A program made the position numbers and the translations under genes. A DNA stretch of 64,000 bases from Balanoglossus misakiensis (Eukaryota; Animalia; Hemichordata), in contig CM082577.2 of NCBI GenBank assembly GCA_040954595.2, positions 15,445,903-15,509,902 of the forward strand, read 5' to 3'. The notes below the pieces were generated by a model. That model saw nothing but the letters and a program-made list of their open reading frames with translations. It was not told the DNA's origin and ran no database searches. Below, piece after piece: positions 235 through 27,154 of this stretch. Positions within the stretch are counted from its first letter, which is position 1, and each line of letters begins with the position of its first letter.

Positions 235-815
235 GTGAGTGTAATTGCAAATTTGCCTATTCTAGATTCTTACGTGCCATTGGAGAGCTCCATTGACTGG
301 TCATTCATACTGTTTTCATTCATTCATTGCGGCATCAATATATTTTATCTATTCTAGCCAAAGAGCTTGGCACCTGTTGAAATGAACTCATCTGCTGTGG
401 GCCAGTTTATTGGTGGCAGTTGAGCTGAGGAGAGCACCTTCCTTCCCGGCACGCCACCAAGTAAAGTTCCACGCCGCCCACCACAGATGCCAGCATTCAT
501 TCATGCGAGTGAGTGTAATTGCAAATTTGCCTATTCTAGAATCTTACGTGCCATTGGAGAGCTCCATTGACTGGTCATTCATACTGTTTTCATTCATTCA
601 TTGCGGCATCAATATATTTTATCTATTCTAGCCAAAGAGCTTGGCACCTGTTGAAATGAACTCATCTGCTGTGGGCCAGTTTATTGGTGGCAGTTGAGCT
701 GAGGAGAGCACCTTCCTTCCCGGCACGCCACCAAGTAAAGTTCCACGCCGCCCACCACAGATGCCAGCATTCATTCATGCGAGTGAGTGTAATTGCAAAT
801 TTGCCTATTCTAGAT

Positions 816-992
816 CTGTAATGGAAATGGAGAAAGTACCTTATATTTTCTGTAAAATAGACATTTAATTGGCAAGCCGTCCTGCATCAATTATTAATTG
901 TGTACATGCACTAAAGCGCCCTCACTGCTGGGTGTGTTGTATGGTCTTTAACCCTGTTTCAAATTAGAGTACTTTCTGCAATTTCAAGACAG
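816..992. mobile_element. Representative 177-bp MITE-like insert present in every 452-bp unit
   Basis: Left end ctgtaatggaaatggagaaagtac vs reverse complement of right end ctgtcttgaaattgcagaaagtac (19/24 identical). Flanked by AT on both sides (tagAT|ctgt...acag|ATctta). Absent from the short units. Confidence 0.75.
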
Positions 993-3900
993 ATCTTACG
1001 TGCCATTGGAGAGCTCCATTGACTGGTCATTCATACTGTTTTCATTCATTCATTGCGGCATCAATATATTTTATCTATTCTAGCCAAAGAGCTTGGCACC
1101 TGTTGAAATGAACTCATCTGCTGTGGGCCAGTTTATTGGTGGCAGTTGAGCTGAGGAGAGCACCTTCCTTCCCGGCACGCCACCAAGTAAAGTTCCACGC
1201 CGCCCACCACAGATGCCAGCATTCATTCATGCGAGTGAGTGTAATTGCAAATTTGCCTATTCTAGATCTGTAATGGAAATGGAGAAAGTACCTTATATTT
1301 TCTGTAAAATAGACATTTAATTGGCAAGCCGTCCTGCATCAATTATTAATTGTGTACATGCACTAAAGCGCCCTCACTGCTGGGTGTGTTGTATGGTCTT
1401 TAACCCTGTTTCAAATTAGAGTACTTTCTGCAATTTCAAGACAGATCTTACGTGCCATTGGAGAGCTCCATTGACTGGTCATTCATACTGTTTTCATTCA
1501 TTCATTGCGGCATCAATATATTTTATCTATTCTAGCCAAAGAGCTTGGCACCTGTTGAAATGAACTCATCTGCTGTGGGCCAGTTTATTGGTGGCAGTTG
1601 AGCTGAGGAGAGCACCTTCCTTCCCGGCACGCCACCAAGTAAAGTTCCACGCCGCCCACCACAGATGCCAGCATTCATTCATGCGAGTGAGTGTAATTGC
1701 AAATTTGCCTATTCTAGATCTGTAATGGAAATGGAGAAAGTACCTTATATTTTCTGTAAAATAGACATTTAATTGGCAAGCCGTCCTGCATCAATTATTA
1801 ATTGTGTACATGCACTAAAGCGCCCTCACTGCTGGGTGTGTTGTATGGTCTTTAACCCTGTTTCAAATTAGAGTACTTTCTGCAATTTCAAGACAGATCT
1901 TACGTGCCATTGGAGAGCTCCATTGACTGGTCATTCATACTGTTTTCATTCATTCATTGCGGCATCAATATATTTTATCTATTCTAGCCAAAGAGCTTGG
2001 CACCTGTTGAAATGAACTCATCTGCTGTGGGCCAGTTTATTGGTGGCAGTTGAGCTGAGGAGAGCACCTTCCTTCCCGGCACGCCACCAAGTAAAGTTCC
2101 ACGCCGCCCACCACAGATGCCAGCATTCATTCATGCGAGTGAGTGTAATTGCAAATTTGCCTATTCTAGATCTGTAATGGAAATGGAGAAAGTACCTTAT
2201 ATTTTCTGTAAAATAGACATTTAATTGGCAAGCCGTCCTGCATCAATTATGAATTGTGTACATGCACTAAAGCGCCCTCACTGCTGGGTGTGTTGTATGG
2301 TCTTTAACCCTGTTTCAAATTAGAGTACTTTCTGCAATTTCAAGACAGATCTTACGTGCCATTGGAGAGCTCCATTGACTGGTCATTCATACTGTTTTCA
2401 TTCATTCATTGCGGCATCAATATATTTTATCTATTCTAGCCAAAGAGCTTGGCACCTGTTGAAATGAACTCATCTGCTGTGGGCCAGTTTATTGGTGGCA
2501 GTTGAGCTGAGAAGAGCACCTTCCTTCCCGGCACGCCACCAAGTAAAGTTCCACGCCGCCCACCACAGATGCCAGCATTCATTCATGCGAGTGAGTGTAA
2601 TTGCAAATTTGCCTATTCTAGATCTGTAATGGAAATGGAGAAAGTACCTTATATTTTCTGTAAAATAGACATTTAATTGGCAAGCCGTCCTGCATCAATT
2701 ATGAATTGTGTACATGCACTAAAGCGCCCTCACTGCTGGGTGTGTTGTATGGTCTTTAACCCTGTTTCAAATTAGAGTACTTTCTGCAATTTCAAGACAG
2801 ATCTTACGTGCCATTGGAGAGCTCCATTGACTGGTCATTCATACTGTTTTCATTCATTCATTGCGGCATCAATATATTTTATCTATTCTAGCCAAAGAGC
2901 TTGGCACCTGTTGAAATGAACTCATCTGCTGTGGGCCAGTTTATTGGTGGCAGTTGAGCTGAGCAGAGCACCTTCCTTCCCGGCACGCCACCAAGTAAAG
3001 TTCCACGCCGCCCACCACAGATGCCAGCATTCATTCATGCGAGTGAGTGTAATTGCAAATTTGCCTATTCTAGATCTGTAATGGAAATGGAGAAAGTACC
3101 TTATATTTTCTGTAAAATAGACATTTAATTGGCAAGCCGTCCTGCATCAATTATGAATTGTGTACATGCACTAAAGCGCCCTCACTGCTGGGTGTGTTGT
3201 ATGGTCTTTAACCCTGTTTCAAATTAGAGTACTTTCTGCAATTTCAAGACAGATCTTACGTGCCATTGGAGAGCTCCATTGACTGGTCATTCATACTGTT
3301 TTCATTCATTCATTGCGGCATCAATATATTTTATCTATTCTAGCCAAAGAGCTTGGCACCTGTTGAAATGAACTCATCTGCTGTGGGCCAGTTTATTGGT
3401 GGCAGTTGAGCTGAGAAGAGCACCTTCCTTCCCGGCACGCCACCAAGTAAAGTTCCACGCCGCCCACCACAGATGCCAGCATTCATTCATGCGAGTGAGT
3501 GTAATTGCAAATTTGCCTATTCTAGATCTGTAATGGAAATGGAGAAAGTACCTTATATTTTCTGTAAAATAGACATTTAATTGGCAAGCCGTCCTGCATC
3601 AATTATGAATTGTGTACATGCACTAAAGCGCCCTCACTGCTGGGTGTGTTGTATGGTCTTTAACCCTGTTTCAAATTAGAGTACTTTCTGCAATTTCAAG
3701 ACAGATCTTACGTGCCATTGGAGAGCTCCATTGACTGGTCATTCATACTGTTTTCATTCATTCATTGCGGCATCAATATATTTTATCTATTCTAGCCAAA
3801 GAGCTTGGCACCTGTTGAAATGAACTCATCTGCTGTGGGCCAGTTTATTGGTGGCAGTTGAGCTGAGGAGAGCACCTTCCTTCCCGGCACGCCACCAAGT

Positions 3901-4237
3901 AAAGTTCCACGCCGCCCACCACAGATGCCAGCATTCATTCATGCGAGTGAGTGTAATTGCAAATTTGCCTATTCTAGATCTGTAATGGAAATGGAGAAAG
4001 TACCTTATATTTTCTGTAAAATAGACATTTAATTGGCAAGCCGTCCTGCATCAATTATTAATTGTGTACATGCACTAAAGCGCCCTCACTGCTGGGTGTG
4101 TTGTATGGTCTTTAACCCTGTTTCAAATTAGAGTACTTTCTGCAATTTCAAGACAGATCTTACGTGCCATTGGAGAGCTCCATTGACTGGTCATTCATAC
4201 TGTTTTCATTCATTCATTGCGGCATCAATATATTTTA

Positions 4238-4661
4238 CAGCCGAAATTATGAAAGGTCGCCGATTCAATATGTGATCTAGACGTCCTGTGTGCACTGAAC
4301 ACACGATGTGTTTATCTAACACAAACAACAGAACCTCTCATAAAAGAGATGCGGTATCATTAGACTAATTACAGATGGTAGTCTGGAAACACGCTCCCCC
4401 TCAGAGAGAGTTGTTTACTTGGGTACGATGTCAAAGTTTAATCTCAAAGTGTATACGCTTTATGTTGAGAGTGTACCCAAGTAAACAACTCTCTCTGAGG
4501 GGGAGCGTGTTTCCAGACTACCATCTGTAATTAGTCTAATGATACCGCATCTCTTTTATGAGAGGTTCTGTTGTTTGTGTTAGATAAACACATCGTGTGT
4601 TCAGTGCACACAGGACGTCTAGATCACATATTGAATCGGCGACCTTTCATAATTTCGGCTG
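4238..4661. mobile_element. 424-bp MITE with 189-bp TIRs and TA target-site duplication (Tc1/mariner-type signature)
   Basis: 4238-4426 is the reverse complement of 4473-4661 around a 46-bp spacer. Termini are CAG...CTG. The empty site tatttTAtctattc is visible in all other units, and TA is duplicated at 4236-4237 and 4662-4663. Confidence 0.95.
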
Positions 4662-4776
4662 TATCTATTCTAGCCAAAGAGCTTGGCACCTGTTGAAATG
4701 AACTCATCTGCTGTGGGCCAGTTTATTGGTGGCAGTTGAGCTGAGGAGAGCACCTTCCTTCCCGGCACGCCACCAA

Positions 4777-6582
4777 GTACAGTTCCACGTGCATTCCTGG
4801 CCCTGGTTTTATTTATGTTTACAGACAATATTGCATTTTTGTACAAGTATTTTAATCAACTATAAATTTTGAATGTGTCATTTACCTGAACCGGTCATGT
4901 TGACCAGAATGATACATTTCTGCCTTCACTCACCCTATAAATATGTGATTGAGACATAGGTCATTTGCATAAGCTAACATACCAGAAAGTAAGCATATCT
5001 GTTGTTTTCCCTGTGTCACTGCCATCAAAGTAAAAATTAGACGTTGTGTAGAGCAAACTCCAATTTTTTGTTCTCAATAAACATGGATGAATTACATAGA
5101 ATGTGTTTGTTGTTTACAGTCTTTAAATGACACATTAGATTATGCACTTTACAAAACGTTTCTGAGAAACAAGTGACTAACTAGTTTCTTTCCACTGTGG
5201 CCAACGTGGTTCACTGTTTGTGTCAGAATCTCTCTGTTTTGCAAGGATTTTGAAATCATAGTGGTGACATGCATAGTGAAAATCAGCTACTTTCAAATGT
5301 CCGTCATGTTCATGCTGTAATTGAATTTTCAAAGCTGGGCTGGCGTGTTTTTTCTTATTTACATAAGTATCACACTTTATACATGTATCTTCATGGGGTT
5401 TTTTGAGTCCCGTATTTAGGTCCTCTCTCACAATTTTACGAAATATCGTATAACTGACAGTTGTTCTTCCCAGAAGAGATTGGTTGGTTATGAACTCTCG
5501 GTGTAACTGCGATATACTGTGGGCCGGCGCCAGGTACGGTTTAAATCGAGGATTCCTGCAGTAGTGAGATTCTACAATTCTGTGCCTGCGTACGTGTTCA
5601 GTGATATCAGTCAGCAAATTTGGATTGAGTTTCCGACGATGCCCTTTGTGTCGGCCCCTTGCATCTGGCATCAGACCAGTAAAGTTCCATGTGCATTCCT
5701 GGCCCTGGTTTTATTTATGTTTACAGACAATATTGCATTTTTGTACAAGTATTTTAATCAACTATAAATTTTGAATGTGTCATTTACCTGAACCGGTCAT
5801 GTTGACCAGAATGATACATTTCTGCCTTCACTCACCCTATAAATATGTGATTGAGACATAGGTCATTTGCATAAGCTAACATACCAGAAAGTAAGCATAT
5901 CTGATGTTTTCCCTGTGTCACTGCCATCAAAGTAAAAATTAGACGTTGTGTAGAGCAAACTCCAATTTTTTGTTCTCAATAAACATGGATGAATTACATA
6001 GAATGTGTTTGTTGTTTACAGTCTTTAAATGACACATTAGATTATGCACTTTACAAAACGTTTCTGAGAAACAAGTGACTAACTAGTTTCTTTCCACTGT
6101 GGCCAACGTGGTTCACTGTTTGTGTCAGAATCTCTCTGTTTTGCAAGGATTTTGAAATCATAGTGGTGACATGCATAGTGAAAATCAGCTACTTTCAAAT
6201 GTCCGTCATGTTCATGCTGTAATTGAATTTTCAAAGCTGGGCTGGCGTGTTTTTTCTTATTTACATAAGTATCACACTTTATACATGTATCTTCATGGGG
6301 TTTTCTGAGTCCCGTATTTAGGTCCTCTCTCACAATTTTACGAAATATCGTATAACTGACAGTTGTTCTTCCCAGAAGAGATTGGTTGGTTATGAACTCT
6401 CGGTGTAACTGCGATATACTGTGGTCCGGCGCCAGGTACGGTTTAAATCGAGGATTCCTGCAGTAGTGAGATTCTACAATTCTGTGCCTGCGTACGTGTT
6501 CAGTGATATCAGTCAGCAAATTTGGATTGAGTTTCCGACGATGCCCTTTGTGTCGGCCCCTTGCATCTGGCATCAGACCAGT
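4777..6582. repeat. 902-bp tandem duplication of the 3' half and 3' flank of the minus-strand gene
   Basis: 4777-5680 matches 5679-6582 with a few substitutions. The two ORF stops at 5177 and 6079 are 902 bp apart. Confidence 0.95.
5177..5680 (-). pseudogene. 5'-truncated duplicate of the N-terminal transposase-half gene (164 aa from an internal Met)
   Basis: Identical to the last 164 aa of 6079-7035 except PDH>PAH and LRK>LKK. It has no own promoter or N-terminus. Confidence 0.8.
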
Positions 6583-7035
6583 TGAACAGTGCATCATTTT
6601 GCTTAGAACGGTTCTAGTCCGCCTCTCACTAATGCCAAATAATTTCAGGAATGCATTTTTGCAGACAGTAACCGTTTCACCGCCTTCATTCACCAGGTGA
6701 TAACGAACCGATTTCTTGTGTGACTTCATCTGCATATCCATCAGTTTGTAGAGCATCAAGTTCTGTTCATTATACACGCGACCATCAAAATATTTTCTCG
6801 TGGTGCCTAAAACATGCGTACTCCCAAGCTTCCGCAGACAATTCCCTTGAACGCAGGCGCATTCCAAGGAAAGACTGTCAATATCTGGAAAAGGGCGATT
6901 TTTCCTTGGTTTTTGTCTCGGACACGTCTTTTTAGAATTCCTACGTGGCTTGTTGGCTCGAGCTGACAGTTCGGTTCTGCGTTGCTGCCACACAGGAATG
7001 GGTTCCCACGCATAAGCAACTCCCCGGCAGGCCAT
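6079..7035 (-). CDS. Sola1-like transposase N-terminal (Cys/His-rich DNA-binding) half, ~318 aa, no catalytic domain
   Basis: Motifs CxCxxxxC, VCKxAFLxLFGISxxR, DxRGxH, ESHYxR...YL, VSYxxFxKI, PxxDTCxxCD and HxxxA, which normally lie upstream of the DDD core in one polypeptide. ATG at 7035 (accATGG). Minus-strand AATAAA near 5710-5715. Confidence 0.8.
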   Translation of the reverse strand: MACRGVAYAWEPIPVWQQRRTELSARANKPRRNSKKTCPRQKPRKNRPFPDIDSLSLECACVQGNCLRKLGSTHVLGTTRKYFDGRVYNEQNLMLYKLMDMQMKSHKKSVRYHLVNEGGETVTVCKNAFLKLFGISERRTRTVLSKMMHCSTGLMPDARGRHKGHRRKLNPNLLTDITEHVRRHRIVESHYCRNPRFKPYLAPDHSISQLHREFITNQSLLGRTTVSYTIFRKIVREDLNTGLRKPHEDTCIKCDTYVNKKKHASPALKIQLQHEHDGHLKVADFHYACHHYDFKILAKQRDSDTNSEPRWPQWKETS

Positions 7036-7082
7036 GGTCACAGCTGAAGTATTTGTTCAAGTACTGACTGACTAAACGCGGC

Positions 7083-8216
7083 ATGGAACAAACGAACGAA
7101 CGACTTCACGTTCGGAAAAAAAATCGTTGCGAGCTGTTGGGTGCATGCCTCTATAGTTGTCGGCAACCGTTCTTTTTTATTGCTAAACAATGCTGTCAGA
7201 GCATGGAAGGTGTGGTGGAAAACGAACAGAGGTTTTGTACGACCAACGATTGGATGGTGCTACATATGGACTTCCACAAGTCATTGCCGGTTCCTAAACT
7301 CAGCTCTGAAGACTTTTACTTTAAATCGAAATTGCAAATGAAGCTCCTTGGAATTTACAACGGGACAACGGAAAAGATGCATTGTTATGTATGGACAGAG
7401 CTCGATAGCAGAAAGTCTCCCGATGAAGTTATTACCTGTCTAAATCACTTTTTTTATAACTCGGGTGTGACCAGCAGACATGCAGTTATTTACAGCGACA
7501 ACTGCCGTGCCGAATTCAAGTGTGGGAAGTTAATGTTTTACTATGACTATCTGTTACGAAAGGGCGTGTTTCGACGAATTGACTATAAAACTCTTGTGGC
7601 TGGACACACGTACTCCACCTGTGACCGAGTTTTTGCGTCCATTGAAAGGCATGCAAGTCGTTTCCAGAGTATAGAGACACCTCACGATTGGACATCTGTG
7701 ATTCGAGGATCTTCTCTGAATGGGAACATTGGAGTTACGGAGATGACTCACAGAGACTTTTTCAATTATTCTGATTTCCTGAAAAATGAGTACGTTGTGC
7801 GTTATGCAGATACAAACAATGTAACTTTTTACTACCAAGCCATGCACTATTTTAATTTTGGAGAAGGAGAAAGGCTTGATACCGACGGCAACCTCAGAAC
7901 ATTTAGTCATGCAGATAAAGTTTGGGTGAGAACATCTCTAGATCCAAGCGAGACCCCGATTGTAGTCGACTTTAGAAAGAAGAAGCAGAACCGGCGTTTA
8001 CAAGATTGTACGCTGAACAAACTTTATCAGGAACGTCGACCACTGGCGAGCAAAGTTTGGCGGGATCTTCAGAGTTTAGCCAAAAATTACCTGTCTCCGG
8101 AGGCAATAGAATTTTATAGGAATCTACCGCTTCAGGAGAGTAGTGGCACCTCTGCAGACCCGTACGCCTTTCATGATGATGACGACGACGATGATGATGA
8201 TATGGGCGGTGGTTGA
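7083..8216 (+). CDS. Sola1-like DDD transposase catalytic half, 377 aa (alternative start at 7203), acidic C-terminal tail
   Basis: MDFHKSLPVP (D63), FYFKSKL, CYVWTE...EVITCL, YSDNC (D139), GHTYSTCDRVFASIE (D181), P..W..VI, K..DL..L...L...A.EFY. AATAAA overlaps the stop at 8216-8221. Confidence 0.85.
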   Translation: MEQTNERLHVRKKNRCELLGACLYSCRQPFFFIAKQCCQSMEGVVENEQRFCTTNDWMVLHMDFHKSLPVPKLSSEDFYFKSKLQMKLLGIYNGTTEKMHCYVWTELDSRKSPDEVITCLNHFFYNSGVTSRHAVIYSDNCRAEFKCGKLMFYYDYLLRKGVFRRIDYKTLVAGHTYSTCDRVFASIERHASRFQSIETPHDWTSVIRGSSLNGNIGVTEMTHRDFFNYSDFLKNEYVVRYADTNNVTFYYQAMHYFNFGEGERLDTDGNLRTFSHADKVWVRTSLDPSETPIVVDFRKKKQNRRLQDCTLNKLYQERRPLASKVWRDLQSLAKNYLSPEAIEFYRNLPLQESSGTSADPYAFHDDDDDDDDDMGGG

Positions 8217-8376
8217 ATAAACTGTCCTTTTCATGACGACAGTGATTTTGGATATTTGATGTGCGTGCACAGTTTATATGTAATATTTTCACACGAACGA
8301 GTTTTGACTGAATTTGATTAAAGAATGTACTCGATAATTAACAAATGTGCTGAATCGTGGTTATTATGTTGTTAAT

Positions 8377-8417
8377 TTTTGTTTGTTTGTTTGTTTGTTT
8401 GTTTGTTTGTTTGTTTG
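8377..8417. repeat. (GTTT)n microsatellite
   Basis: About 10 tandem tttg/gttt units; repeated in cassette copy 2 near 24203-24243. Confidence 0.9.
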
Positions 8418-8550
8418 TAAACAATTTCCGTTCATTCAACTGGCTACAAAGTTGGATTTTTGTACTGGGAAGCGATAAACTCGCACATCAAAACCGGGGA
8501 GACTCGATCATTTTTCCCTGCAGGTAGCCTGAAAAGCACCCGGGCAGAGA

Positions 8551-8624
8551 TTACGTCATATATGGTCCACTTTAATACGAAATTATGCAAATGTGACATT
8601 TCACGGAAACGGCGTATATAAAAG
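8551..8624 (+). promoter_or_regulatory. Putative Pol II promoter of the wH-SET gene
   Basis: CRE-like TTACGTCA 8551-8558, octamer ATGCAAAT 8585-8592 and TATATAAAAG 8615-8624, about 90 bp upstream of aacATGG at 8716. Confidence 0.55.
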
Positions 8625-8715
8625 CGACCCTGGGCTATTGTTCGGAATGCGTCATCGACGAGAGAGTGACTGATAATTCTTCTACCTCGAGTCAACCATT
8701 CTGTATATACTGAAC

Positions 8716-10056
8716 ATGGCTAGCTGGCGCAGGAAGAGACAAGGCAATGTGCGGTCTGTAATCAACGAACGGCACCGCTCAGTTCAGTGTCCCTTTCTTC
8801 AAAAGTGGATCGGTGAGCAATTGGTATTTTCAGGTCGTTCAGAGGATGAAGTCCAGTCCAGTACTGTATTTGAGAGCTACAAATGTTGGGTTGAAAACTA
8901 TTCGTCGGCGGACAATCAAGTAATGATTATGGTTACTAAAGCTCGATTTTTCAAGGTGAGAATGATCGCATTTTTCTTTCCCCCCCCCCCCTCCCTCCCT
9001 CCCTCCCTCCCCCAAGGGACTCGTTTTCTGTCTCTTTTAAACCTGTAACTTAACGAAAAGGAAGTTTTTCACATATCTCTTCGTTGACACTATAGCAATT
9101 TGGAGCGCGGATGCTTCAAGAGAAGAGCGTTACCAAATCAAAGTCGGCCGGGGTTAATATTTATAGAGGTGTTCGTCTGAAAGCTGGTTCGCGAAGAATC
9201 TCAACGGGGAAACCTGAGCACAGTGTACTTCAGACCAGGGCAAGGGCATTTCTTGATGACGCCAGCGTGACCGTTCCGATCGAGGTAAGAATGGTGTTTT
9301 GTTTGGACTAGGACAATAGAACGTTGCAATGAGTGTGTCAATGGGTGTCCAAGTGCAAACGTGGTCTGCTTCTGTCCACAAATGCCATTAATTTTTGGCA
9401 GGATTTATAAAATTGTCAATGAAGAATACAAAAATGAAAAACAACAGTTAATAGCAAACTGGTAGGATTGCAAGGGCTTGTAAAACGGTACACACTGTAC
9501 CAGGAAGTTTGCAACACTAATGAAGAATGTATATGATATATTTAGGTGAGAACTGTTCGCGATCGCCGGGACGCAGGACGGTGCGCGTTTTCGACGAGGG
9601 ATATTCAAGCCTGGGACGTCGTCTGCGAATACCGGGGCACGGTTATTAGCGTTGAAGAAGCTAGTCGGCGTGATGAGCTTTACAGGGCAGAGGGGAAACG
9701 ACCACGCATGTTCCATCTCTACATTGGAAAGAGACACGTTGTGTGAGTGTATCACTTAGTCGAATATATGGTCATATATTGCAAAGCATCTGTCGAAATA
9801 GAAAACGTAATATTGTCTATATTTTCCTCATTAACGCAGCATTGACGGATACGATGTCCCAGCCGGTGAAGAAAATTTAGCAGGCCTAATAAATCACAGT
9901 CAGCAGAACGCCAACTTGGTACCGGTTCGGATCGGAGAGCGCCTGGTTTTCTTTGCAACCAGGAATCTTTGTCAGGGAGTAGAGCTTTTGTATGATTACG
10001 GTGACGGGGGTGAAGAGGATTTCTTCAGTGGTTCTCAAACTTTTCCTGAAAATTAA
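8716..10056 (+). CDS. Spliced 280-aa protein: winged-helix-like domain plus PR-Set7/SETD8-like SET domain. Exons 8716-8955, 9096-9284, 9546-9742, 9840-10056
   Basis: Three GT-AG introns (AAG|gtgaga..tatag, GAG|gtaaga..tttag, GT|gtgagt..cgcag) give an open 843-nt frame. SET motifs: GRCAFSTRDI..WDVVCEYRG, IDG, GLINHS..NANL, ELLYDYG. N-terminus W..E......V.S..VFESYKCW....RFFK......IYRGVRLK resembles D5-primase C-terminal/RFX winged helix. Confidence 0.85.
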
Positions 10057-10962
10057 GGCATTAACACATCAACGCTTCGGGGTGTCGTAACGGCGGCGCG
10101 GCGGGGGGGGGGGGGGGGACGTGAAAATGTTTGTATCAGGAACAAAATTCCCGTGCAAATCACCTTGATCCGGGTGGGTGGACTATTCGCGACAAATGTT
10201 GAAATCATACAAAGCATTTTACTTAATTAACCCATTTTTTTCATTTATTTGTTTACAGTTTACAACGTCATAGAGAAGTTGAACTAGAGACTGGATCAGC
10301 GTGGGTGACACCATAGTACACCAATGTTTTCTTCAGTTTGATTCAATTGTAATTTAAAACTGAGATTGCCTAACGCTTTCCCAGATTTTTTTAACCACTG
10401 AGAAACTGTGGGTTTTTTTCTGGGTTTTGGTGCGAGGTGATCTCAGTCAGTGGTGTTAATTTAATTAATCATTTTCTTTTCCTATTTACGTCGACTGAAA
10501 TGTATTTTGATAGGTGATAGTCATACCATAAAAAAAATCTTACGGCGCGACTGCCAAAATGTACATTTATTTGTCCGTTCCAAGTTATTTTGTGTATGTG
10601 TGATGGGTGCCGGTGACTGTGCAGGGTTGATTTCCCTAGAGCGACTGTTATATTCGTTTTCCAACGATGATGAATTTACATGTTATTTGCTTGGCATTTT
10701 GACGCAGAGACACTTCTGAAAACACAAACCTATTAATTATGCCACGGGTGTAAATTGATCACATTAAAAGAGGCTTTAGACGTTTGCCGCGAGCTCCTGG
10801 TGGGCAGAATCTTGTCAGCCCAAATTTGACTATAAGTACATAGCCAATGATGTGACGCTCTCCCACATCCTTCGCCGCGCCTTTTCGCTGATTTACAGCA
10901 TCTTGCGTAAACACTGTCATTTGATCTTGCTTGGCAGAAGTCAACTTGCTCTATACTACATT

Positions 10963-11328
10963 ATGGCGGCCAAGCTCAACTGCATATCAGATAATGCCAA
11001 GGAGCGTTTGAGAGGCATCCTCGCCAGAAGGAGTCGCGTTTCCGGTGACTGTGTGCTCTGGACGGGTGCAGCTTGTCGAAACGGCTATGGCTCTATTACG
11101 TTCAGAGATGAGAACACTCTAACCGCCTATGTCCATCACATTGCACTCCTAATTAACGGAGTGCAATTGGTGGGCAGGCGGTTAGAGTGTTCTCATCTTT
11201 GCAACGAAAAGCTATGCATCCGCCCAGAGCACATTGTCCAGGAAACGCGACTCCTAAACATTTCACGAAAGACGTGCTTTAAATCCCCAAAAGGGGAGTG
11301 TCACCACGATCCCAGGTGCCTAAGGTGA
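10963..11328 (+). CDS. His-Cys-box / His-Me finger endonuclease (I-PpoI-like zinc-binding loop), 121 aa
   Basis: CVLWTG....GYG...YVHH, SHLCNEKLCIRPEHIVQE....N.SRKTC.....C.H.P.C. First ATG (attATGG) at 10963 within the listed 10852-11328 ORF. Confidence 0.85.
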   Translation: MAAKLNCISDNAKERLRGILARRSRVSGDCVLWTGAACRNGYGSITFRDENTLTAYVHHIALLINGVQLVGRRLECSHLCNEKLCIRPEHIVQETRLLNISRKTCFKSPKGECHHDPRCLR

Positions 11329-11580
11329 GTAATCCTCTTCTCATTTGATATGTATTGTGTGACCCTGCAGTTGAAACGCTTTCATCAATAATTTGCGGCG
11401 CGTGGGTAATCTCGGTGTTATTGACAATGCAGCCGGCCCAAACATTTTTAAATTAACACTGTTTCTGACTGTATTAACGAAATGTCCAATTTGCAAGTAG
11501 CCTATAGACAACCCTTTTGAATGAGTTTTGTCTCGTTGAGATTTTATACATAAGGAACAATCTAGATTTATTTTAGAAGA

Positions 11581-11994
11581 CACTGTTCTTTTAAAACAGC
11601 TAGCATAATACAGCTAAATTTCGGAATTTCCGGACAATTTTCGGAATTCCTTTTAAATTTGAGAAATTTTTCATCAGATATAAGTGTTACTATTTATTGG
11701 ACATGTTTTTATCATTGTTTACTTTTTAAGGTCATTCTCACCCCCCCCCCCCCAAAAAAAGCCGCTTTAGGCTTCATGTTCAGTAAAAAATCTGGAAAGT
11801 TCAGCTGAATTTTACACTGATCACACATTTTTGGGAAGGTCTGGCGCAAAATAAAGGATGACAAATGTAAATCTAATGTCACATTTGTAAACCTCTAAGT
11901 ATTGTACACTCATTCTATTAAGTATATGCAAATAGTACGGATAATTTTTTCGGAATGTGGAATTCCGAAATTAGTTCGGAACGTGTTAGCAGTG
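11581..11994. mobile_element. Degenerate TIR element with CACTG...CAGTG ends and AAGA flanking direct repeat
   Basis: aaga|CACTG at 11581 and CAGTG|aaga at 11994. Subterminal ttccggacaattttcggaattcc (~11628-11650) pairs with ggaattccgaaattagttcggaa (~11959-11981). Confidence 0.45.
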
Positions 11995-12236
11995 AAGAGA
12001 TCACCACTGAGGGTTGGAAGGCCTTGCCAGAAATTAACGCGTAAAGTACGCCCTCACAGGCCATGTAAACAAGGTCAAATAAGGCCGTCTGGCAAACGAA
12101 TGATTAATTCAACGCGCCATTTGAGCCGAGCTGAGTTGGTCTGAGTTGCGTATCACACAGACTTAGGCTGAATGTCAGTGGAGTAACCAGTCCGTTTTAG
12201 ATTTACCAATGATGTGAATTTAATTTCTTCACCCAG

Positions 12237-12640
12237 AAAAACAGAACACAACTTGTCTGCAACATGATGCTGGAGGTGACACATGACAGAGAAGTGGATC
12301 CGCGTTGTCAACACAGATGCCAGCATTCAAAAGGGGAGTGCCACCTGCTAAAATCAACTCATCTGCTGTTGGCCCATTTTACCTGTGGCAACTGTTCAGA
12401 GGAGACAACGTTTATTCCGTGCAAGCCAACACGCAATGTTGGGGTCTACCTGTCAACACAGATGCAAGCATTCATGTGAGTGAGTATCAGGACTGACCTT
12501 GTATTTGCTGAATAATTCATAATGCCTATTTTAGAATTCTTAGAGGCATTTGGAGTTCATTGCCTGGTCAACCAAACTACACCCCTTAACAGCTGAAACA
12601 AAATGCGTATTGTGTTCATTCATTCATTGCATCAATATAT
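12237..12640 (+). repeat. Diverged copy of the array unit (exon-like 12237-12479 plus intron-like remainder)
   Basis: Shares aactcatctgctgt, acagatgc.agcattcat, gagtgagt, tgcctatt.tagaattctta, cattg.ctggtca and ttcattcattcattgc.atcaatatat with the array unit, in the same order. Confidence 0.9.
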
Positions 12641-12947
12641 ATAGGCAACATGAGTATCAAGTAGCACTATTTGTTTACGATTGTATTCATGAAAACTTCC
12701 CACTAACAATTCCACAGTTAATATTGAACACATTTATCCAACAAGGTCAAAAGAAAAAGGGAATCTTCTGGTTCCAAAATACGCCACAAATGTGGGTCAA
12801 CATACAGTGAAATATTATGGTGCTCAAATATGCAACATATCAAATCTGTCTCATCAAAGTCATGCTTTAAAAAAGAATTGAAAAGGTATTATTTATCCAT
12901 TTGACTGCTGTATTTTCAGAAGGAAAACAAACTGAATTTGGTTTTTC

Positions 12948-15900
12948 AAGTACCTTATATTTTCTGTAAAATAGACATTTAATTGGCAAGCCGTCCTGCA
13001 TCAATTATTAATTGTGTACATGCACTAAAGCGCCCTCACTGCTGGGTGTGTTGTATGGTCTTTAACCCTGTTTCAAATTAGAGTACTTTCTGCAATTTCA
13101 AGACAGATCTTACGTGCCATTGGAGAGCTCCATTGACTGGTCATTCATACTGTTTTCATTCATTCATTGCGGCATCAATATATTTTATCTATTCTAGCCA
13201 AAGAGCTTGGCACCTGTTGAAATGAACTCATCTGCTGTGGGCCAGTTTATTGGTGGCAGTTGAGCTGAGGAGAGCACCTTCCTTCCCGGCACGCCACCAA
13301 GTAAAGTTCCACGCCGCCCACCACAGATGCCAGCATTCATTCATGCGAGTGAGTGTAATTGCAAATTTGCCTATTCTAGATCTGTAATGGAAATGGAGAA
13401 AGTACCTTATATTTTCTGTAAAATAGACATTTAATTGGCAAGCCGTCCTGCATCAATTATTAATTGTGTACATGCACTAAAGCGCCCTCACTGCTGGGTG
13501 TGTTGTATGGTCTTTAACCCTGTTTCAAATTAGAGTACTTTCTGCAATTTCAAGACAGATCTTACGTGCCATTGGAGAGCTCCATTGACTGGTCATTCAT
13601 ACTGTTTTCATTCATTCATTGCGGCATCAATATATTTTATCTATTCTAGCCAAAGAGCTTGGCACCTGTTGAAATGAACTCATCTGCTGTGGGCCAGTTT
13701 ATTGGTGGCAGTTGAGCTGAGGAGAGCACCTTCCTTCCCGGCACGCCACCAAGTAAAGTTCCACGCCGCCCACCACAGATGCCAGCATTCATTCATGCGA
13801 GTGAGTGTAATTGCAAATTTGCCTATTCTAGATCTGTAATGGAAATGGAGAAAGTACCTTATATTTTCTGTAAAATAGACATTTAATTGGCAAGCCGTCC
13901 TGCATCAATTATTAATTGTGTACATGCACTAAAGCGCCCTCACTGCTGGGTGTGTTGTATGGTCTTTAACCCTGTTTCAAATTAGAGTACTTTCTGCAAT
14001 TTCAAGACAGATCTTACGTGCCATTGGAGAGCTCCATTGACTGGTCATTCATACTGTTTTCATTCATTCATTGCGGCATCAATATATTTTATCTATTCTA
14101 GCCAAAGAGCTTGGCACCTGTTGAAATGAACTCATCTGCTGTGGGCCAGTTTATTGGTGGCAGTTGAGCTGAGGAGAGCACCTTCCTTCCCGGCACGCCA
14201 CCAAGTAAAGTTCCACGCCGCCCACCACAGATGCCAGCATTCATTCATGCGAGTGAGTGTAATTGCAAATTTGCCTATTCTAGATCTGTAATGGAAATGG
14301 AGAAAGTACCTTATATTTTCTGTAAAATAGACATTTAATTGGCAAGCCGTCCTGCATCAATTATTAATTGTGTACATGCACTAAAGCGCCCTCACTGCTG
14401 GGTGTGTTGTATGGTCTTTAACCCTGTTTCAAATTAGAGTACTTTCTGCAATTTCAAGACAGATCTTACGTGCCATTGGAGAGCTCCATTGACTGGTCAT
14501 TCATACTGTTTTCATTCATTCATTGCGGCATCAATATATTTTATCTATTCTAGCCAAAGAGCTTGGCACCTGTTGAAATGAACTCATCTGCTGTGGGCCA
14601 GTTTATTGGTGGCAGTTGAGCTGAGGAGAGCACCTTCCTTCCCGGCACGCCACCAAGTAAAGTTCCACGCCGCCCACCACAGATGCCAGCATTCATTCAT
14701 GCGAGTGAGTGTAATTGCAAATTTGCCTATTCTAGATTCTTACGTGCCATTGGAGAGCTCCATTGACTGGTCATTCATACTGTTTTCATTCATTCATTGC
14801 GGCATCAATATATTTTATCTATTCTAGCCAAAGAGCTTGGCACCTGTTGAAATGAACTCATCTGCTGTGGGCCAGTTTATTGGTGGCAGTTGAGCTGAGC
14901 AGAGCACCTTCCTTCCCGGCACGCCACCAAGTAAAGTTCCACGCCGCCCACCACAGATGCCAGCATTCATTCATGCGAGTGAGTGTAATTGCAAATTTGC
15001 CTATTCTAGAATCTTACGTGCCATTGGAGAGCTCCATTGACTGGTCATTCATACTGTTTTCATTCATTCATTGCGGCATCAATATATTTTATCTATTCTA
15101 GCCAAAGAGCTTGGCACCTGTTGAAATGAACTCATCTGCTGTGGGCCAGTTTATTGGTGGCAGTTGAGCTGAGGAGAGCACCTTCCTTCCCGGCACGCCA
15201 CCAAGTAAAGTTCCACGCCGCCCACCACAGATGCCAGCATTCATTCATGCGAGTGAGTGTAATTGCAAATTTGCCTATTCTAGATCTGTAATGGAAATGG
15301 AGAAAGTACCTTATATTTTCTGTAAAATAGACATTTAATTGGCAAGCCGTCCTGCATCAATTATTAATTGTGTACATGCACTAAAGCGCCCTCACTGCTG
15401 GGTGTGTTGTATGGTCTTTAACCCTGTTTCAAATTAGAGTACTTTCTGCAATTTCAAGACAGATCTTACGTGCCATTGGAGAGCTCCATTGACTGGTCAT
15501 TCATACTGTTTTCATTCATTCATTGCGGCATCAATATATTTTATCTATTCTAGCCAAAGAGCTTGGCACCTGTTGAAATGAACTCATCTGCTGTGGGCCA
15601 GTTTATTGGTGGCAGTTGAGCTGAGGAGAGCACCTTCCTTCCCGGCACGCCACCAAGTAAAGTTCCACGCCGCCCACCACAGATGCCAGCATTCATTCAT
15701 GCGAGTGAGTGTAATTGCAAATTTGCCTATTCTAGATCTGTAATGGAAATGGAGAAAGTACCTTATATTTTCTGTAAAATAGACATTTAATTGGCAAGCC
15801 GTCCTGCATCAATTATTAATTGTGTACATGCACTAAAGCGCCCTCACTGCTGGGTGTGTTGTATGGTCTTTAACCCTGTTTCAAATTAGAGTACTTTCTG

Positions 15901-18900: not shown

Positions 18901-20615
18901 TCTGTAATGGAAATGGAGAAAGTACCTTATATTTTCTGTAAAATAGACATTTAATTGGCAAGCCGTCCTGCATCAATTATGAATTGTGTACATGCACTAA
19001 AGCGCCCTCACTGCTGGGTGTGTTGTATGGTCTTTAACCCTGTTTCAAATTAGAGTACTTTCTGCAATTTCAAGACAGATCTTACGTGCCATTGGAGAGC
19101 TCCATTGACTGGTCATTCATACTGTTTTCATTCATTCATTGCGGCATCAATATATTTTATCTATTCTAGCCAAAGAGCTTGGCACCTGTTGAAATGAACT
19201 CATCTGCTGTGGGCCAGTTTATTGGTGGCAGTTGAGCTGAGAAGAGCACCTTCCTTCCCGGCACGCCACCAAGTAAAGTTCCACGCCGCCCACCACAGAT
19301 GCCAGCATTCATTCATGCGAGTGAGTGTAATTGCAAATTTGCCTATTCTAGATCTGTAATGGAAATGGAGAAAGTACCTTATATTTTCTGTAAAATAGAC
19401 ATTTAATTGGCAAGCCGTCCTGCATCAATTATGAATTGTGTACATGCACTAAAGCGCCCTCACTGCTGGGTGTGTTGTATGGTCTTTAACCCTGTTTCAA
19501 ATTAGAGTACTTTCTGCAATTTCAAGACAGATCTTACGTGCCATTGGAGAGCTCCATTGACTGGTCATTCATACTGTTTTCATTCATTCATTGCGGCATC
19601 AATATATTTTATCTATTCTAGCCAAAGAGCTTGGCACCTGTTGAAATGAACTCATCTGCTGTGGGCCAGTTTATTGGTGGCAGTTGAGCTGAGGAGAGCA
19701 CCTTCCTTCCCGGCACGCCACCAAGTAAAGTTCCACGCCGCCCACCACAGATGCCAGCATTCATTCATGCGAGTGAGTGTAATTGCAAATTTGCCTATTC
19801 TAGATCTGTAATGGAAATGGAGAAAGTACCTTATATTTTCTGTAAAATAGACATTTAATTGGCAAGCCGTCCTGCATCAATTATTAATTGTGTACATGCA
19901 CTAAAGCGCCCTCACTGCTGGGTGTGTTGTATGGTCTTTAACCCTGTTTCAAATTAGAGTACTTTCTGCAATTTCAAGACAGATCTTACGTGCCATTGGA
20001 GAGCTCCATTGACTGGTCATTCATACTGTTTTCATTCATTCATTGCGGCATCAATATATTTTACAGCCGAAATTATGAAAGGTCGCCGATTCAATATGTG
20101 ATCTAGACGTCCTGTGTGCACTGAACACACGATGTGTTTATCTAACACAAACAACAGAACCTCTCATAAAAGAGATGCGGTATCATTAGACTAATTACAG
20201 ATGGTAGTCTGGAAACACGCTCCCCCTCAGAGAGAGTTGTTTACTTGGGTACGATGTCAAAGTTTAATCTCAAAGTGTATACGCTTTATGTTGAGAGTGT
20301 ACCCAAGTAAACAACTCTCTCTGAGGGGGAGCGTGTTTCCAGACTACCATCTGTAATTAGTCTAATGATACCGCATCTCTTTTATGAGAGGTTCTGTTGT
20401 TTGTGTTAGATAAACACATCGTGTGTTCAGTGCACACAGGACGTCTAGATCACATATTGAATCGGCGACCTTTCATAATTTCGGCTGTATCTATTCTAGC
20501 CAAAGAGCTTGGCACCTGTTGAAATGAACTCATCTGCTGTGGGCCAGTTTATTGGTGGCAGTTGAGCTGAGGAGAGCACCTTCCTTCCCGGCACGCCACC
20601 AAGTACAGTTCCACG
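12948..20615 (+). repeat. Tandem array segment 2
   Basis: Begins inside the 177-bp insert (aagtaccttat...). Mostly 452-bp units, with two 274-bp units near 14470-15020 and the MITE at 20064-20487. Confidence 0.98.
20064..20487. mobile_element. 424-bp TA-flanked MITE, copy 2
   Basis: Same sequence and same insertion site as 4238-4661, offset 15826. Confidence 0.95.
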
Positions 20616-21904: not shown

Positions 21905-22861
21905 CTAACTAGTTTCTTTCCACTGTGGCCAACGTGGTTCACTGTTTGTGTCAGAATCTCTCTGTTTTGCAAGGATTTTGAAATCATAGTGGTGACATGC
22001 ATAGTGAAAATCAGCTACTTTCAAATGTCCGTCATGTTCATGCTGTAATTGAATTTTCAAAGCTGGGCTGGCGTGTTTTTTCTTATTTACATAAGTATCA
22101 CACTTTATACATGTATCTTCATGGGGTTTTCTGAGTCCCGTATTTAGGTCCTCTCTCACAATTTTACGAAATATCGTATAACTGACAGTTGTTCTTCCCA
22201 GAAGAGATTGGTTGGTTATGAACTCTCGGTGTAACTGCGATATACTGTGGTCCGGCGCCAGGTACGGTTTAAATCGAGGATTCCTGCAGTAGTGAGATTC
22301 TACAATTCTGTGCCTGCGTACGTGTTCAGTGATATCAGTCAGCAAATTTGGATTGAGTTTCCGACGATGCCCTTTGTGTCGGCCCCTTGCATCTGGCATC
22401 AGACCAGTTGAACAGTGCATCATTTTGCTTAGAACGGTTCTAGTCCGCCTCTCACTAATGCCAAATAATTTCAGGAATGCATTTTTGCAGACAGTAACCG
22501 TTTCACCGCCTTCATTCACCAGGTGATAACGAACCGATTTCTTGTGTGACTTCATCTGCATATCCATCAGTTTGTAGAGCATCAAGTTCTGTTCATTATA
22601 CACGCGACCATCAAAATATTTTCTCGTGGTGCCTAAAACATGCGTACTCCCAAGCTTCCGCAGACAATTCCCTTGAACGCAGGCGCATTCCAAGGAAAGA
22701 CTGTCAATATCTGGAAAAGGGCGATTTTTCCTTGGTTTTTGTCTCGGACACGTCTTTTTAGAATTCCTACGTGGCTTGTTGGCTCGAGCTGACAGTTCGG
22801 TTCTGCGTTGCTGCCACACAGGAATGGGTTCCCACGCATAAGCAACTCCCCGGCAGGCCAT
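21905..22861 (-). CDS. Sola1-like transposase N-terminal half, copy 2
   Basis: Identical translation to 6079-7035. Confidence 0.8.
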   Translation of the reverse strand: MACRGVAYAWEPIPVWQQRRTELSARANKPRRNSKKTCPRQKPRKNRPFPDIDSLSLECACVQGNCLRKLGSTHVLGTTRKYFDGRVYNEQNLMLYKLMDMQMKSHKKSVRYHLVNEGGETVTVCKNAFLKLFGISERRTRTVLSKMMHCSTGLMPDARGRHKGHRRKLNPNLLTDITEHVRRHRIVESHYCRNPRFKPYLAPDHSISQLHREFITNQSLLGRTTVSYTIFRKIVREDLNTGLRKPHEDTCIKCDTYVNKKKHASPALKIQLQHEHDGHLKVADFHYACHHYDFKILAKQRDSDTNSEPRWPQWKETS

Positions 22862-22908
22862 GGTCACAGCTGAAGTATTTGTTCAAGTACTGACTGACTA
22901 AACGCGGC

Positions 22909-24042
22909 ATGGAACAAACGAACGAACGACTTCACGTTCGGAAAAAAAATCGTTGCGAGCTGTTGGGTGCATGCCTCTATAGTTGTCGGCAACCGTTCTT
23001 TTTTATTGCTAAACAATGCTGTCAGAGCATGGAAGGTGTGGTGGAAAACGAACAGAGGTTTTGTACGACCAACGATTGGATGGTGCTACATATGGACTTC
23101 CACAAGTCATTGCCGGTTCCTAAACTCAGCTCTGAAGACTTTTACTTTAAATCGAAATTGCAAATGAAGCTCCTTGGAATTTACAACGGGACAACGGAAA
23201 AGATGCATTGTTATGTATGGACAGAGCTCGATAGCAGAAAGTCTCCCGATGAAGTTATTACCTGTCTAAATCACTTTTTTTATAACTCGGGTGTGACCAG
23301 CAGACATGCAGTTATTTACAGCGACAACTGCCGTGCCGAATTCAAGTGTGGGAAGTTAATGTTTTACTATGACTATCTGTTACGAAAGGGCGTGTTTCGA
23401 CGAATTGACTATAAAACTCTTGTGGCTGGACACACGTACTCCACCTGTGACCGAGTTTTTGCGTCCATTGAAAGGCATGCAAGTCGTTTCCAGAGTATAG
23501 AGACACCTCACGATTGGACATCTGTGATTCGAGGATCTTCTCTGAATGGGAACATTGGAGTTACGGAGATGACTCACAGAGACTTTTTCAATTATTCTGA
23601 TTTCCTGAAAAATGAGTACGTTGTGCGTTATGCAGATACAAACAATGTAACTTTTTACTACCAAGCCATGCACTATTTTAATTTTGGAGAAGGAGAAAGG
23701 CTTGATACCGACGGCAACCTCAGAACATTTAGTCATGCAGATAAAGTTTGGGTGAGAACATCTCTAGATCCAAGCGAGACCCCGATTGTAGTCGACTTTA
23801 GAAAGAAGAAGCAGAACCGGCGTTTACAAGATTGTACGCTGAACAAACTTTATCAGGAACGTCGACCACTGGCGAGCAAAGTTTGGCGGGATCTTCAGAG
23901 TTTAGCCAAAAATTACCTGTCTCCGGAGGCAATAGAATTTTATAGGAATCTACCGCTTCAGGAGAGTAGTGGCACCTCTGCAGACCCGTACGCCTTTCAT
24001 GATGATGACGACGACGATGATGATGATATGGGCGGTGGTTGA
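22909..24042 (+). CDS. Sola1-like DDD transposase catalytic half, copy 2
   Basis: Identical translation to 7083-8216. Confidence 0.85.
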   Translation: MEQTNERLHVRKKNRCELLGACLYSCRQPFFFIAKQCCQSMEGVVENEQRFCTTNDWMVLHMDFHKSLPVPKLSSEDFYFKSKLQMKLLGIYNGTTEKMHCYVWTELDSRKSPDEVITCLNHFFYNSGVTSRHAVIYSDNCRAEFKCGKLMFYYDYLLRKGVFRRIDYKTLVAGHTYSTCDRVFASIERHASRFQSIETPHDWTSVIRGSSLNGNIGVTEMTHRDFFNYSDFLKNEYVVRYADTNNVTFYYQAMHYFNFGEGERLDTDGNLRTFSHADKVWVRTSLDPSETPIVVDFRKKKQNRRLQDCTLNKLYQERRPLASKVWRDLQSLAKNYLSPEAIEFYRNLPLQESSGTSADPYAFHDDDDDDDDDMGGG

Positions 24043-26788: not shown

Positions 26789-27154
26789 ATGGCGGCCAAG
26801 CTCAACTGCATATCAGATAATGCCAAGGAGCGTTTGAGAGGCATCCTCGCCAGAAGGAGTCGCGTTTCCGGTGACTGTGTGCTCTGGACGGGTGCAGCTT
26901 GTCGAAACGGCTATGGCTCTATTACGTTCAGAGATGAGAACACTCTAACCGCCTATGTCCATCACATTGCACTCCTAATTAACGGAGTGCAATTGGTGGG
27001 CAGGCGGTTAGAGTGTTCTCATCTTTGCAACGAAAAGCTATGCATCCGCCCAGAGCACATTGTCCAGGAAACGCGACTCCTAAACATTTCACGAAAGACG
27101 TGCTTTAAATCCCCAAAAGGGGAGTGTCACCACGATCCCAGGTGCCTAAGGTGA
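26789..27154 (+). CDS. His-Cys-box endonuclease, copy 2
   Basis: Identical to 10963-11328. Confidence 0.85.
   Translation: MAAKLNCISDNAKERLRGILARRSRVSGDCVLWTGAACRNGYGSITFRDENTLTAYVHHIALLINGVQLVGRRLECSHLCNEKLCIRPEHIVQETRLLNISRKTCFKSPKGECHHDPRCLR

Follow-up and report, generated by a model that had tools for sequence, protein, structure and literature searches.

A DUF7869 transposase divided between two head-to-head genes in Balanoglossus misakiensis: a likely old split

Eukaryotic cut-and-paste transposases are single chains in most cases. Sola1 elements have terminal inverted repeats and a 4-bp AWWT target-site duplication. These DNA transposons were reportedly described by Bao et al. in 2009. 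One autonomous Sola1 transposon has a single ORF of 630 aa, according to PMC3845634. Two-gene transposases have precedents. In PIF/Harbinger, as described in PMC9179366, a DNA-binding protein and a DDE catalytic protein are encoded on separate ORFs, interact, and are both needed. For Spm/CACTA, a 2026 preprint (bioRxiv 10.64898/2026.08.24.746577) traces TnpA and TnpD to fission of an ancestral transposase, giving DNA-binding and catalytic products that are sometimes separate genes; the word "Sola" is absent from its main text. In the literature searched we found neither such a precedent for Sola1 nor any description of a Sola1 or DUF7869 transposase in split form, and the names DUF7869, PF25273, and "Sola transposase" are absent from it, while a Repbase entry could already record such a layout.

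The window analyzed here is a 64,000-nucleotide stretch of the genome of Balanoglossus misakiensis. A preliminary description had claimed two open, head-to-head ORFs, and both are present and open: ORF A (6079 to 7035, minus strand, 318 aa) corresponds to the N-terminal half of a DUF7869/Sola1-type transposase and is the predicted DNA-binding chain, and ORF B (7203 to 8216, plus strand, 337 aa) corresponds to the catalytic half, with a match to Pfam DUF7869 (E = 1.3e-14) and an acidic tail. The analysis itself yields DUF7869 only, which we tentatively take to be Sola1 by its motifs. Both ORFs are intronless. In 300 base shuffles of positions 5690 to 8700, the longest ORF was 161 aa, and 318 aa was never reached (0/300). 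ORF A is basic (pI 10) and contains the Cys/His motifs CxC..C, DxRG, ESHYxR, and DxCxxC..H, followed by a lineage-specific Trp/Pro tail. It ends soon after the PxxDTCxxCD...HxxxA motif (DTCIKC at residue 249, HLKVA at 279, C-terminal end at 318), and ORF B begins just before the first catalytic Asp, residue 23 counted from ATG 7203, both as originally described.

The spacing between the start codons had been given as either 47 or 167 bp. All three ATGs (7035, 7083, and 7203) have a purine at -3 and a G at +4, and the plus frame encodes 377 aa when read from the upstream ATG (7083 to 8216) versus 337 aa from ATG 7203. Since homologues back ATG 7203 and none backs the in-frame ATG 7083, ORF B probably starts at 7203; the 167-bp gap is favored on this comparison, and the 47-bp promoter is not upheld. 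The resulting spacer (7036 to 7202), a putative shared promoter, contains no TATA and, in an alignment with four relatives, no motif in common with them. Each ORF had also been credited with its own stop and AATAAA signal. Both stops are in place, and the AATAAA of ORF B overlaps the stop at 8216; that of ORF A (TTTATT at 5710) is weak evidence, since it lies 364 nt beyond the stop in AT-rich DNA.

The claim that A and B are consecutive parts of a single type of transposase was borne out. The two ORFs match consecutive, non-overlapping halves of DUF7869 (Sola1-type) transposases of 600 to 700 aa, a size that fits the 630-aa Sola1 ORF given in PMC3845634. A B part lies directly behind the A part in 76 of the 150 hits to ORF A, and in pairwise comparison with one 651-aa fused protein, residues 134 to 289 match A (E = 4e-23) and the sequence from residue 338 matches B (E = 2e-26). 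DUF7869 was matched by 33/34 fused rows. The window's ORFs have the motif series and DDD triad of fused DUF7869 proteins, but divided between opposite strands instead of joined in one ORF of ~630 aa. Between DxCxxC and the first Asp, 70/76 fused proteins have 44 to 69 aa (median, 59), and all 10 stand-alone A proteins checked stop 53 to 72 aa past DxCxxC, the value for the window's ORF A being 70. The triad of ORF B (D23, D99, and D141) is invariant in 40/40 aligned proteins.

Assignment of ORF A as the DNA-binding chain is a prediction from its position and charge; it has no Pfam and no PDB match, and its single-sequence structure model (pLDDT 33) is unusable. The ORF B model, of low confidence (pLDDT 43), has an RNase H-type topology, with weak fold matches to PIWI, integrase, and RuvC (Z 5 to 6.6; all Z < 8). 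PDB sequence searches found no solved-structure relative of this transposase family. A DNA-binding domain was not detected in ORF B, which starts within ~20 residues of the first Asp, so that locating the element ends would require a partner. Two separate ORFs, one with an inferred DNA-binding role, are also the arrangement of PIF/Harbinger; there, however, the partner is a Myb/SANT-like protein (PMC9179366), whereas here the N-terminal half of the transposase itself takes that place, alongside a catalytic chain from a different family. Neither A nor B has a Myb/SANT-like or DDE_Tnp_4-type Pfam match. The Spm/CACTA case concerns a different superfamily in flowering plants and proceeds via alternative splicing, in contrast to the intronless opposite-strand ORFs of marine animals considered here.

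The preliminary description had argued against a recent accidental inversion, and the relatives agree with it. The closest relatives of A and of B are not single ORFs but are split too, at 30 to 51% identity. The six best hits to ORF A are stand-alone proteins of 306 to 347 aa, 33 to 40% identical to A and 27 to 46% identical among themselves, with the same end point and, in most, a Trp/Pro tail. The DDD triad is retained in B-only ORFs, whose starts precede the first Asp by 11 to 26 residues. In the A tree, 15 A-only rows fall on one side of a branch versus 29 fused rows (100/99), and in the B tree, 7 B-only rows likewise share one branch (SH-aLRT 100), although this tree carries a warning of long branches meeting. 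The tree rows are our selection, omitting 61/74 hits without a B part and 47/76 fused hits. Stand-alone A proteins thus branch deeply and end at a fixed point, stand-alone B proteins branch deeply and start at one, and the split is therefore not a recent accident. Named hosts of split relatives are Saccoglossus kowalevskii (B-only), Oculina patagonica (A-only), and Actinostola (partial A); both halves were not found in any one of these hosts. Contigs of equal recorded length, 2,400 bp, carry the nearest A (P0008) and the nearest B (P0001) and may or may not be a single contig. A word-index search with the A alignment returned only 2 proteins, and one with the ORF A sequence returned nothing. 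The occurrence of separate halves in an acorn worm and a coral suggests that the split is likely old and that the halves likely cooperate as a two-part enzyme.

What is conserved is the split; the head-to-head order is not. The divergent layout, sought elsewhere, was seen in one of three informative foreign loci: in L004, a broken copy, a B that is 35% identical is preceded upstream by an A-like sequence (HMM iE 1e-24) on the other strand. The remaining two lack a partner upstream, which means that the order is not fixed: A is absent from 4.3 kb upstream of B in L001, and B is absent from 3.9 kb upstream of A in L005; the genome behind the latter likewise gave no B match but is too incomplete to be informative. 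Copies with stop codons and frameshifts occur among the relatives (L001, L003, and L004), and one cluster holds several part-broken copies. The selection signal within the family is thin and mixed: L002 and L004 differ by 6 synonymous versus 5 non-synonymous changes over 135 codons, and L001 and L003 differ by 0 versus 3 over 55 codons, both small samples.

The A/B pair is present twice in the window. The second copy (21905 to 24042, with A at 21905 to 22861, minus strand, and B at 23029 to 24042, plus strand) is identical and arose by segmental duplication (offset, 15,826); a 14.1-kb stretch that includes the pair is duplicated exactly inside a satellite array of 452-bp units. In addition, a 902-bp unit comprising the 3' half of A and downstream DNA is present in tandem (4776 to 5680, minus strand, and 5678 to 6582; 5 mismatches); the duplicate at 4776 to 5680 lacks the start of A, and a short shared motif joins it to the satellite. 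These copies were likely multiplied by array recombination, not transposition. The block replaces ~90 bp of a satellite unit without duplication, its junctions falling within that unit (unit motifs at positions 191 and 296). Unlike Sola1, the block yielded no terminal inverted repeats and no AWWT or other target-site duplication, with k-mer, mismatch, and BLAST searches giving chance-level matches only, so that mobility of the A/B element stays putative; since the left edge is a junction with satellite, the true ends may be lost.

A further difference from Sola1 is the presence of SET and nuclease genes in the neighborhood. A predicted four-exon gene on the plus strand (8716 to 10056; exons 8716 to 8955, 9096 to 9284, 9546 to 9742, and 9840 to 10056) encodes a 280-aa product with a Pox_D5-like winged helix and a SET domain, its exon 1 being similar to Pox_D5 clusters (score 0.97, with the family on 27% of members). 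In L001 a related winged-helix/SET gene is divergent from B; the window's gene likely travels as cargo in the element that holds A/B. A His-Me finger nuclease gene (10963 to 11328, plus strand, 121 aa; zf-His_Me_endon, E = 2e-13), part of whose coding sequence (11029 to 11255) is a near-perfect hairpin of 227 nt, may also be cargo. A nuclease gene of this kind, here a putative member of the A/B element, is found in KolobokP, which differs in having a Kolobok-type single transposase rather than a split DUF7869 enzyme, and long direct repeats at its termini that have inverted ends of their own (PMC9587614); its main text does not mention a SET gene or a hairpin. The 452-bp satellite unit led us to consider KolobokP-type direct repeats, which were rejected given that the block replaces part of a unit without duplication.

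We regard as the most probable explanation, with somewhat better than even confidence, that A and B are the halves of a DUF7869 DDD transposase, likely of old split and likely forming a two-chain enzyme of a multi-gene DNA element. An ancestral single ORF would have broken in the linker that runs from the final helix of the N-terminal region to the opening strand of the RNase H core, after which A would have acquired its own tail and B its own start. By analogy with the Myb-like protein of PIF/Harbinger, A would attach to the ends of the element and bring in B to carry out DNA cutting and joining; both would be expressed together from the 167-bp spacer, and the winged-helix/SET cargo would modify chromatin at the element. 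A bolder proposal, which we hold only tentatively, is an undescribed multi-gene animal transposon lineage, old enough to include both cnidarians and deuterostomes, with an obligate two-chain fission transposase, a short divergent promoter, a self-encoded histone methyltransferase targeted to DNA (the D5-like winged helix with SET), and a nuclease of the homing type silenced by a hairpin in its own coding sequence.

The split could be old and A nevertheless serve chiefly to switch on the element's transcription in a sequence-specific manner or to counter its silencing, with no need to join the transpososome. The precedent would be the Spm TnpA regulators, which arose, according to the preprint (bioRxiv 10.64898/2026.08.24.746577), when the DNA-binding domain of an ancestral transposase was partitioned off, in some cases into separate genes. 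Such a role, which we judge unlikely, would suit an A that can sit apart from B (L001 and L005) and an element that appears to carry a chromatin-modifying SET gene; it does less well with a B that lacks a detectable means of finding the ends and with halves that tile the fused protein with neither gap nor overlap, and activator and subunit roles of A are compatible with each other. We attach an equally small probability to the pair lying outside any cut-and-paste transposon, either as domesticated host genes or as cargo of a larger virus-like or otherwise mobilized element. The missing element ends, the Pox_D5-like exon, perhaps the His-Me nuclease, and ORFs kept intact over long conservation would all agree with this, but broken multi-copy relatives, the intact triad, and changing gene order fit mobile DNA. 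As for a virus, no relative was found in viral contigs in 6/6 scans, which reach close relatives only, and the block showed no ORF for a capsid, polymerase, or helicase.

Two further accounts would leave an ordinary transposase behind the divided gene. Exons from opposite strands are trans-spliced in Drosophila mod(mdg4), and the halves are exactly consecutive, so the A and B pre-mRNAs might be trans-spliced or otherwise joined into one conventional chain. We think this very improbable: no GT(A/G)AG donor occurs over the final 90 bases of A's coding sequence or the 240 bases after them, and a splice would discard the A-only tail before the stop and the B-only start Met, which stands at a fixed distance. 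Least probable of all is a recent accidental inversion of an ordinary Sola1-type ORF, the dead copy being amplified with the satellite. One inversion of the 5' half would give this geometry, and the block does sit in a duplicated satellite array; yet the closest relatives of both halves are split, the same order recurs in L004, and none of the 10 joints listed for the contigs of four runs changes strand, the best runs possibly being the window's own sample (runs X3 and X4, share 0.07, gave short-piece matches only and hence no layout information). As a recent event inversion is refuted; at the origin of the lineage it is possible.

Under the favored two-chain reading, a naturally split transposase shows where the enzyme divides into DNA-recognition and catalytic parts. 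It opens the parts to separate tests, in a family where searches gave no solved relative and Pfam has no entry for the N-terminal half. The pair would be an animal case of transposase fission, independent of plant Spm, and a possible chassis for retargeting the catalytic chain. If the SET gene is indeed cargo, the element may control its own chromatin state.

The preliminary description had reported two head-to-head ORFs encoding the halves of one transposase, and both were found: ORF A (6079-7035, minus strand, 318 aa), which codes for the N-terminal half of a DUF7869 (Sola1-type) transposase, and ORF B (7083-8216, plus strand, 377 aa, or 337 aa if the ATG at 7203 is the start), which codes for the catalytic half. 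Their lengths are beyond chance, since the longest ORF in 300 shuffles was 161 aa, versus 318 aa for A. The A protein is Cys- and His-rich (pI 10), carries the motifs DTCIKC at 249 and HLKVA at 279, and matched no Pfam family. B contains the HMDFHK motif, whose Asp is residue 23 counted from the ATG at 7203, and matches DUF7869 in Pfam (E = 1.3e-14); no DNA-binding domain was detected in it. B residues D23, D99, and D141 are the same in all 40 of 40 aligned proteins. The predicted fold of B, from a weak model (pLDDT 43), shows an RNase H-type topology; it was matched to PIWI, integrase, and RuvC with Z scores of 5 to 6.6, all below the level that the tool calls clear. The AATAAA of B overlaps the B stop codon, and that of A lies 364 nt past the A stop.

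Querying 1.84 billion representatives with A gave 2,597 matches with E values up to 0.001. A B-like region lies directly behind the A-like region in 76 of the 150 matches listed, bearing out the proposal that A and B are parts of one transposase type. In these fused proteins, the first catalytic Asp follows DxCxxC by 44 to 69 residues (median, 59; measurable in 70 of the 76), and in a single 651-aa protein, residues 134-289 match A while those from 338 onward match B. DUF7869 was found in 33 of 34 fused proteins scanned. The motifs of A/B and of the fused DUF7869 proteins are presumably those of Sola1.

The split of the transposase into A and B is very probably old. The fission point is fixed, the triad is intact, and stand-alone halves (A-only and B-only) lie on separate branches. 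The best six matches to A (306-347 aa, 33-40% identical to A and 27-46% among themselves) span its full length and stop at the same position; all six end in a (Y/F)D..I/L..K motif, followed in five, as in A, by a short Trp/Pro tail. In 10/10 full-length A-only proteins, the stop lies 53-72 residues past DxCxxC, the point at which the catalytic core begins in fused proteins. The B search returned three matches (795 candidates), each 306-313 aa; in these, a cluster mate, and two locus ORFs, the start precedes the first Asp by 11-26 residues, and by exactly 16 in three of them. The later NCBI model of the Saccoglossus B gene is 38 residues longer. Because B relatives start at this distance, we favor the ATG at 7203 and a 167-bp spacer, the wider of the two gaps originally proposed, over the 47-bp gap implied by the ATG at 7083, whose 40 extra residues are supported by no homologue.

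In a tree, 15 A-only rows fall on one side of a branch, with 29 fused rows opposite (bootstrap 100, SH-aLRT 99); 7 B-only rows are set against the same 29 (SH-aLRT 100, in a quick search with a long-branch warning). The rows were hand-picked: the A-only set comprised 13 of the 74 no-B matches, with an A-type N terminus (4 of the 13 partial), plus one from an A-alignment search, and the fused rows were 29 of the 76, picked by coverage. The 61 other no-B matches, left out of the trees, have scattered ends and look like fragments. Named hosts are Saccoglossus kowalevskii (B-only), Oculina patagonica (A-only), and Actinostola (partial A).

Five foreign loci carrying relatives of A or B (L001 to L005) were obtained, of which L002 and L003 have <300 bp upstream and are thus uninformative on order; the divergent layout sought in relatives was found in one of the three informative loci. 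L004 is a broken copy arranged head to head as in the window: nt 547-176 on the minus strand are A-like (iE 1e-24; 26% identity to the window), and they lie upstream of a B-like gene (35% identity) whose start is at 870. In the other two, the partner half does not lie upstream. In L001, the start of B is at 4325, the 4.3 kb before it contains no A, and a multi-exon SET gene instead diverges from B; in L005, no B lies in the 3.9 kb upstream of A. The L005 record is titled as a Microscillaceae bacterium bin, but the DNA is likely of animal origin and binned there by mistake, since its A-type protein groups with the Oculina (coral) protein. The nearest A is recorded on a contig of 2,400 bp, and so is the nearest B (perhaps the same contig); this length barely fits both. 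The A/B spacer has no TATA box and no motif in common with relatives. Contig breaks and a depth rise occur at 7120-7150, and this part of the spacer seems common to other repeated DNA in Balanoglossus misakiensis.

The window is a 452-bp satellite array of high homogeneity, in which 274-bp variants and long higher-order duplications occur. A and B lie in an 8.2-kb nonsatellite block (4790-12947) that takes the place of ~90 bp of one satellite unit. At its start, the 3' half of A is tandemly duplicated (902 bp). The block has two identical copies, 15,826 bp apart, which belong to an exact duplication of positions 541-14637. Neither a terminal inverted repeat nor a target duplication was found. 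A 424-bp MITE inserted in the satellite (4238-4661 and 20064-20487) has inverted arms of 199 nt and a duplicated TA. The right block edge, at 12300-12950, holds a relative of the satellite unit that has diverged (about 70%), and contigs carry related tandem forms of ~330 bp.

A four-exon gene is predicted 3' of B (8716-10056), in which a Pox_D5-like winged helix is joined to SET: exon 1 is similar to the winged helix of Pox_D5 (Atlas score, 0.97; 27% of the members of the cluster carry the family), and the last two exons match SET with the NHS and YDY motifs kept. The SET gene beside B in L001 (1566-3692, minus strand) is related to it (E = 6e-4 and 3e-5 for the exon matches). B is also followed by an ORF for a His-Me finger nuclease (121 aa; E = 2e-13); the ORF core (11029-11255, and again 26855-27081) is a near-perfect 227-nt hairpin (single fold, -154 kcal/mol), with z scores of -17 against 200 dinucleotide shuffles and -16 against 300 synonymous-codon shuffles, none equally stable. 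Nothing remarkable was seen in four control stretches taken from A and B. Both arms are protein coding, inside the Pfam match, and one guess is that the hairpin helps silence a toxic nuclease. Several diverged contigs lie on 9787-10001 (last SET exon) and 11255-11310 (nuclease ORF); this suggests that B. misakiensis has paralogues of the SET and nuclease genes at other sites.

We lean toward the reading that A and B form a two-chain transposase, in which A would bind the element ends and recruit B, the two would jointly carry out cut-and-paste transposition, and the short spacer would coexpress them. Relatives include broken and multiple copies, which fits a mobile element. Substitutions within the family (6 synonymous and 5 nonsynonymous in 135 codons; 0 and 3 in 55 codons) are too few to decide. 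It is unlikely that A is mainly regulatory, and equally unlikely that the pair is domesticated or in a virus-like setting. Joining of A and B by trans-splicing is highly improbable, as no donor lies near the end of A. A recent inversion that made the pair is, if anything, more improbable still; no strand-changing joint occurs among the 10 joints listed for contigs of two sequencing runs, possibly from the window's own sample, and these contigs cover A and B nearly without differing letters, although no single piece spans the entire stretch.

In the portion of the source consulted, an autonomous Sola1 combines a single 630-aa ORF with inverted ends and AWWT targets (PMC3845634), whereas A and B are two ORFs; assignment to canonical Sola1 was rejected because the single-ORF feature is absent. 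From the excerpts consulted, PIF/Harbinger uses two interacting proteins, the partner being Myb-like (PMC9179366; PMC2836001), and in KolobokP a DDD/E transposase is accompanied by a His-Me nuclease (PMC9587614). The consulted sections of PMC5751038, PMC3985635, 10.1101/2021.09.26.461848, and 10.1101/2021.11.30.470311 contain nothing on a split Sola, and a literature search, covering sources other than Repbase and the original Sola paper, found no published report of a split Sola1/DUF7869 transposase. The closest precedent in kind, as far as the consulted part of a 2026 preprint goes, is plant Spm TnpA, which that preprint traces to the partition of a transposase, in some cases as separate genes (10.64898/2026.08.24.746577). 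The A/B split, for which we found no published counterpart in the Sola1/DUF7869 family, is real and likely old.
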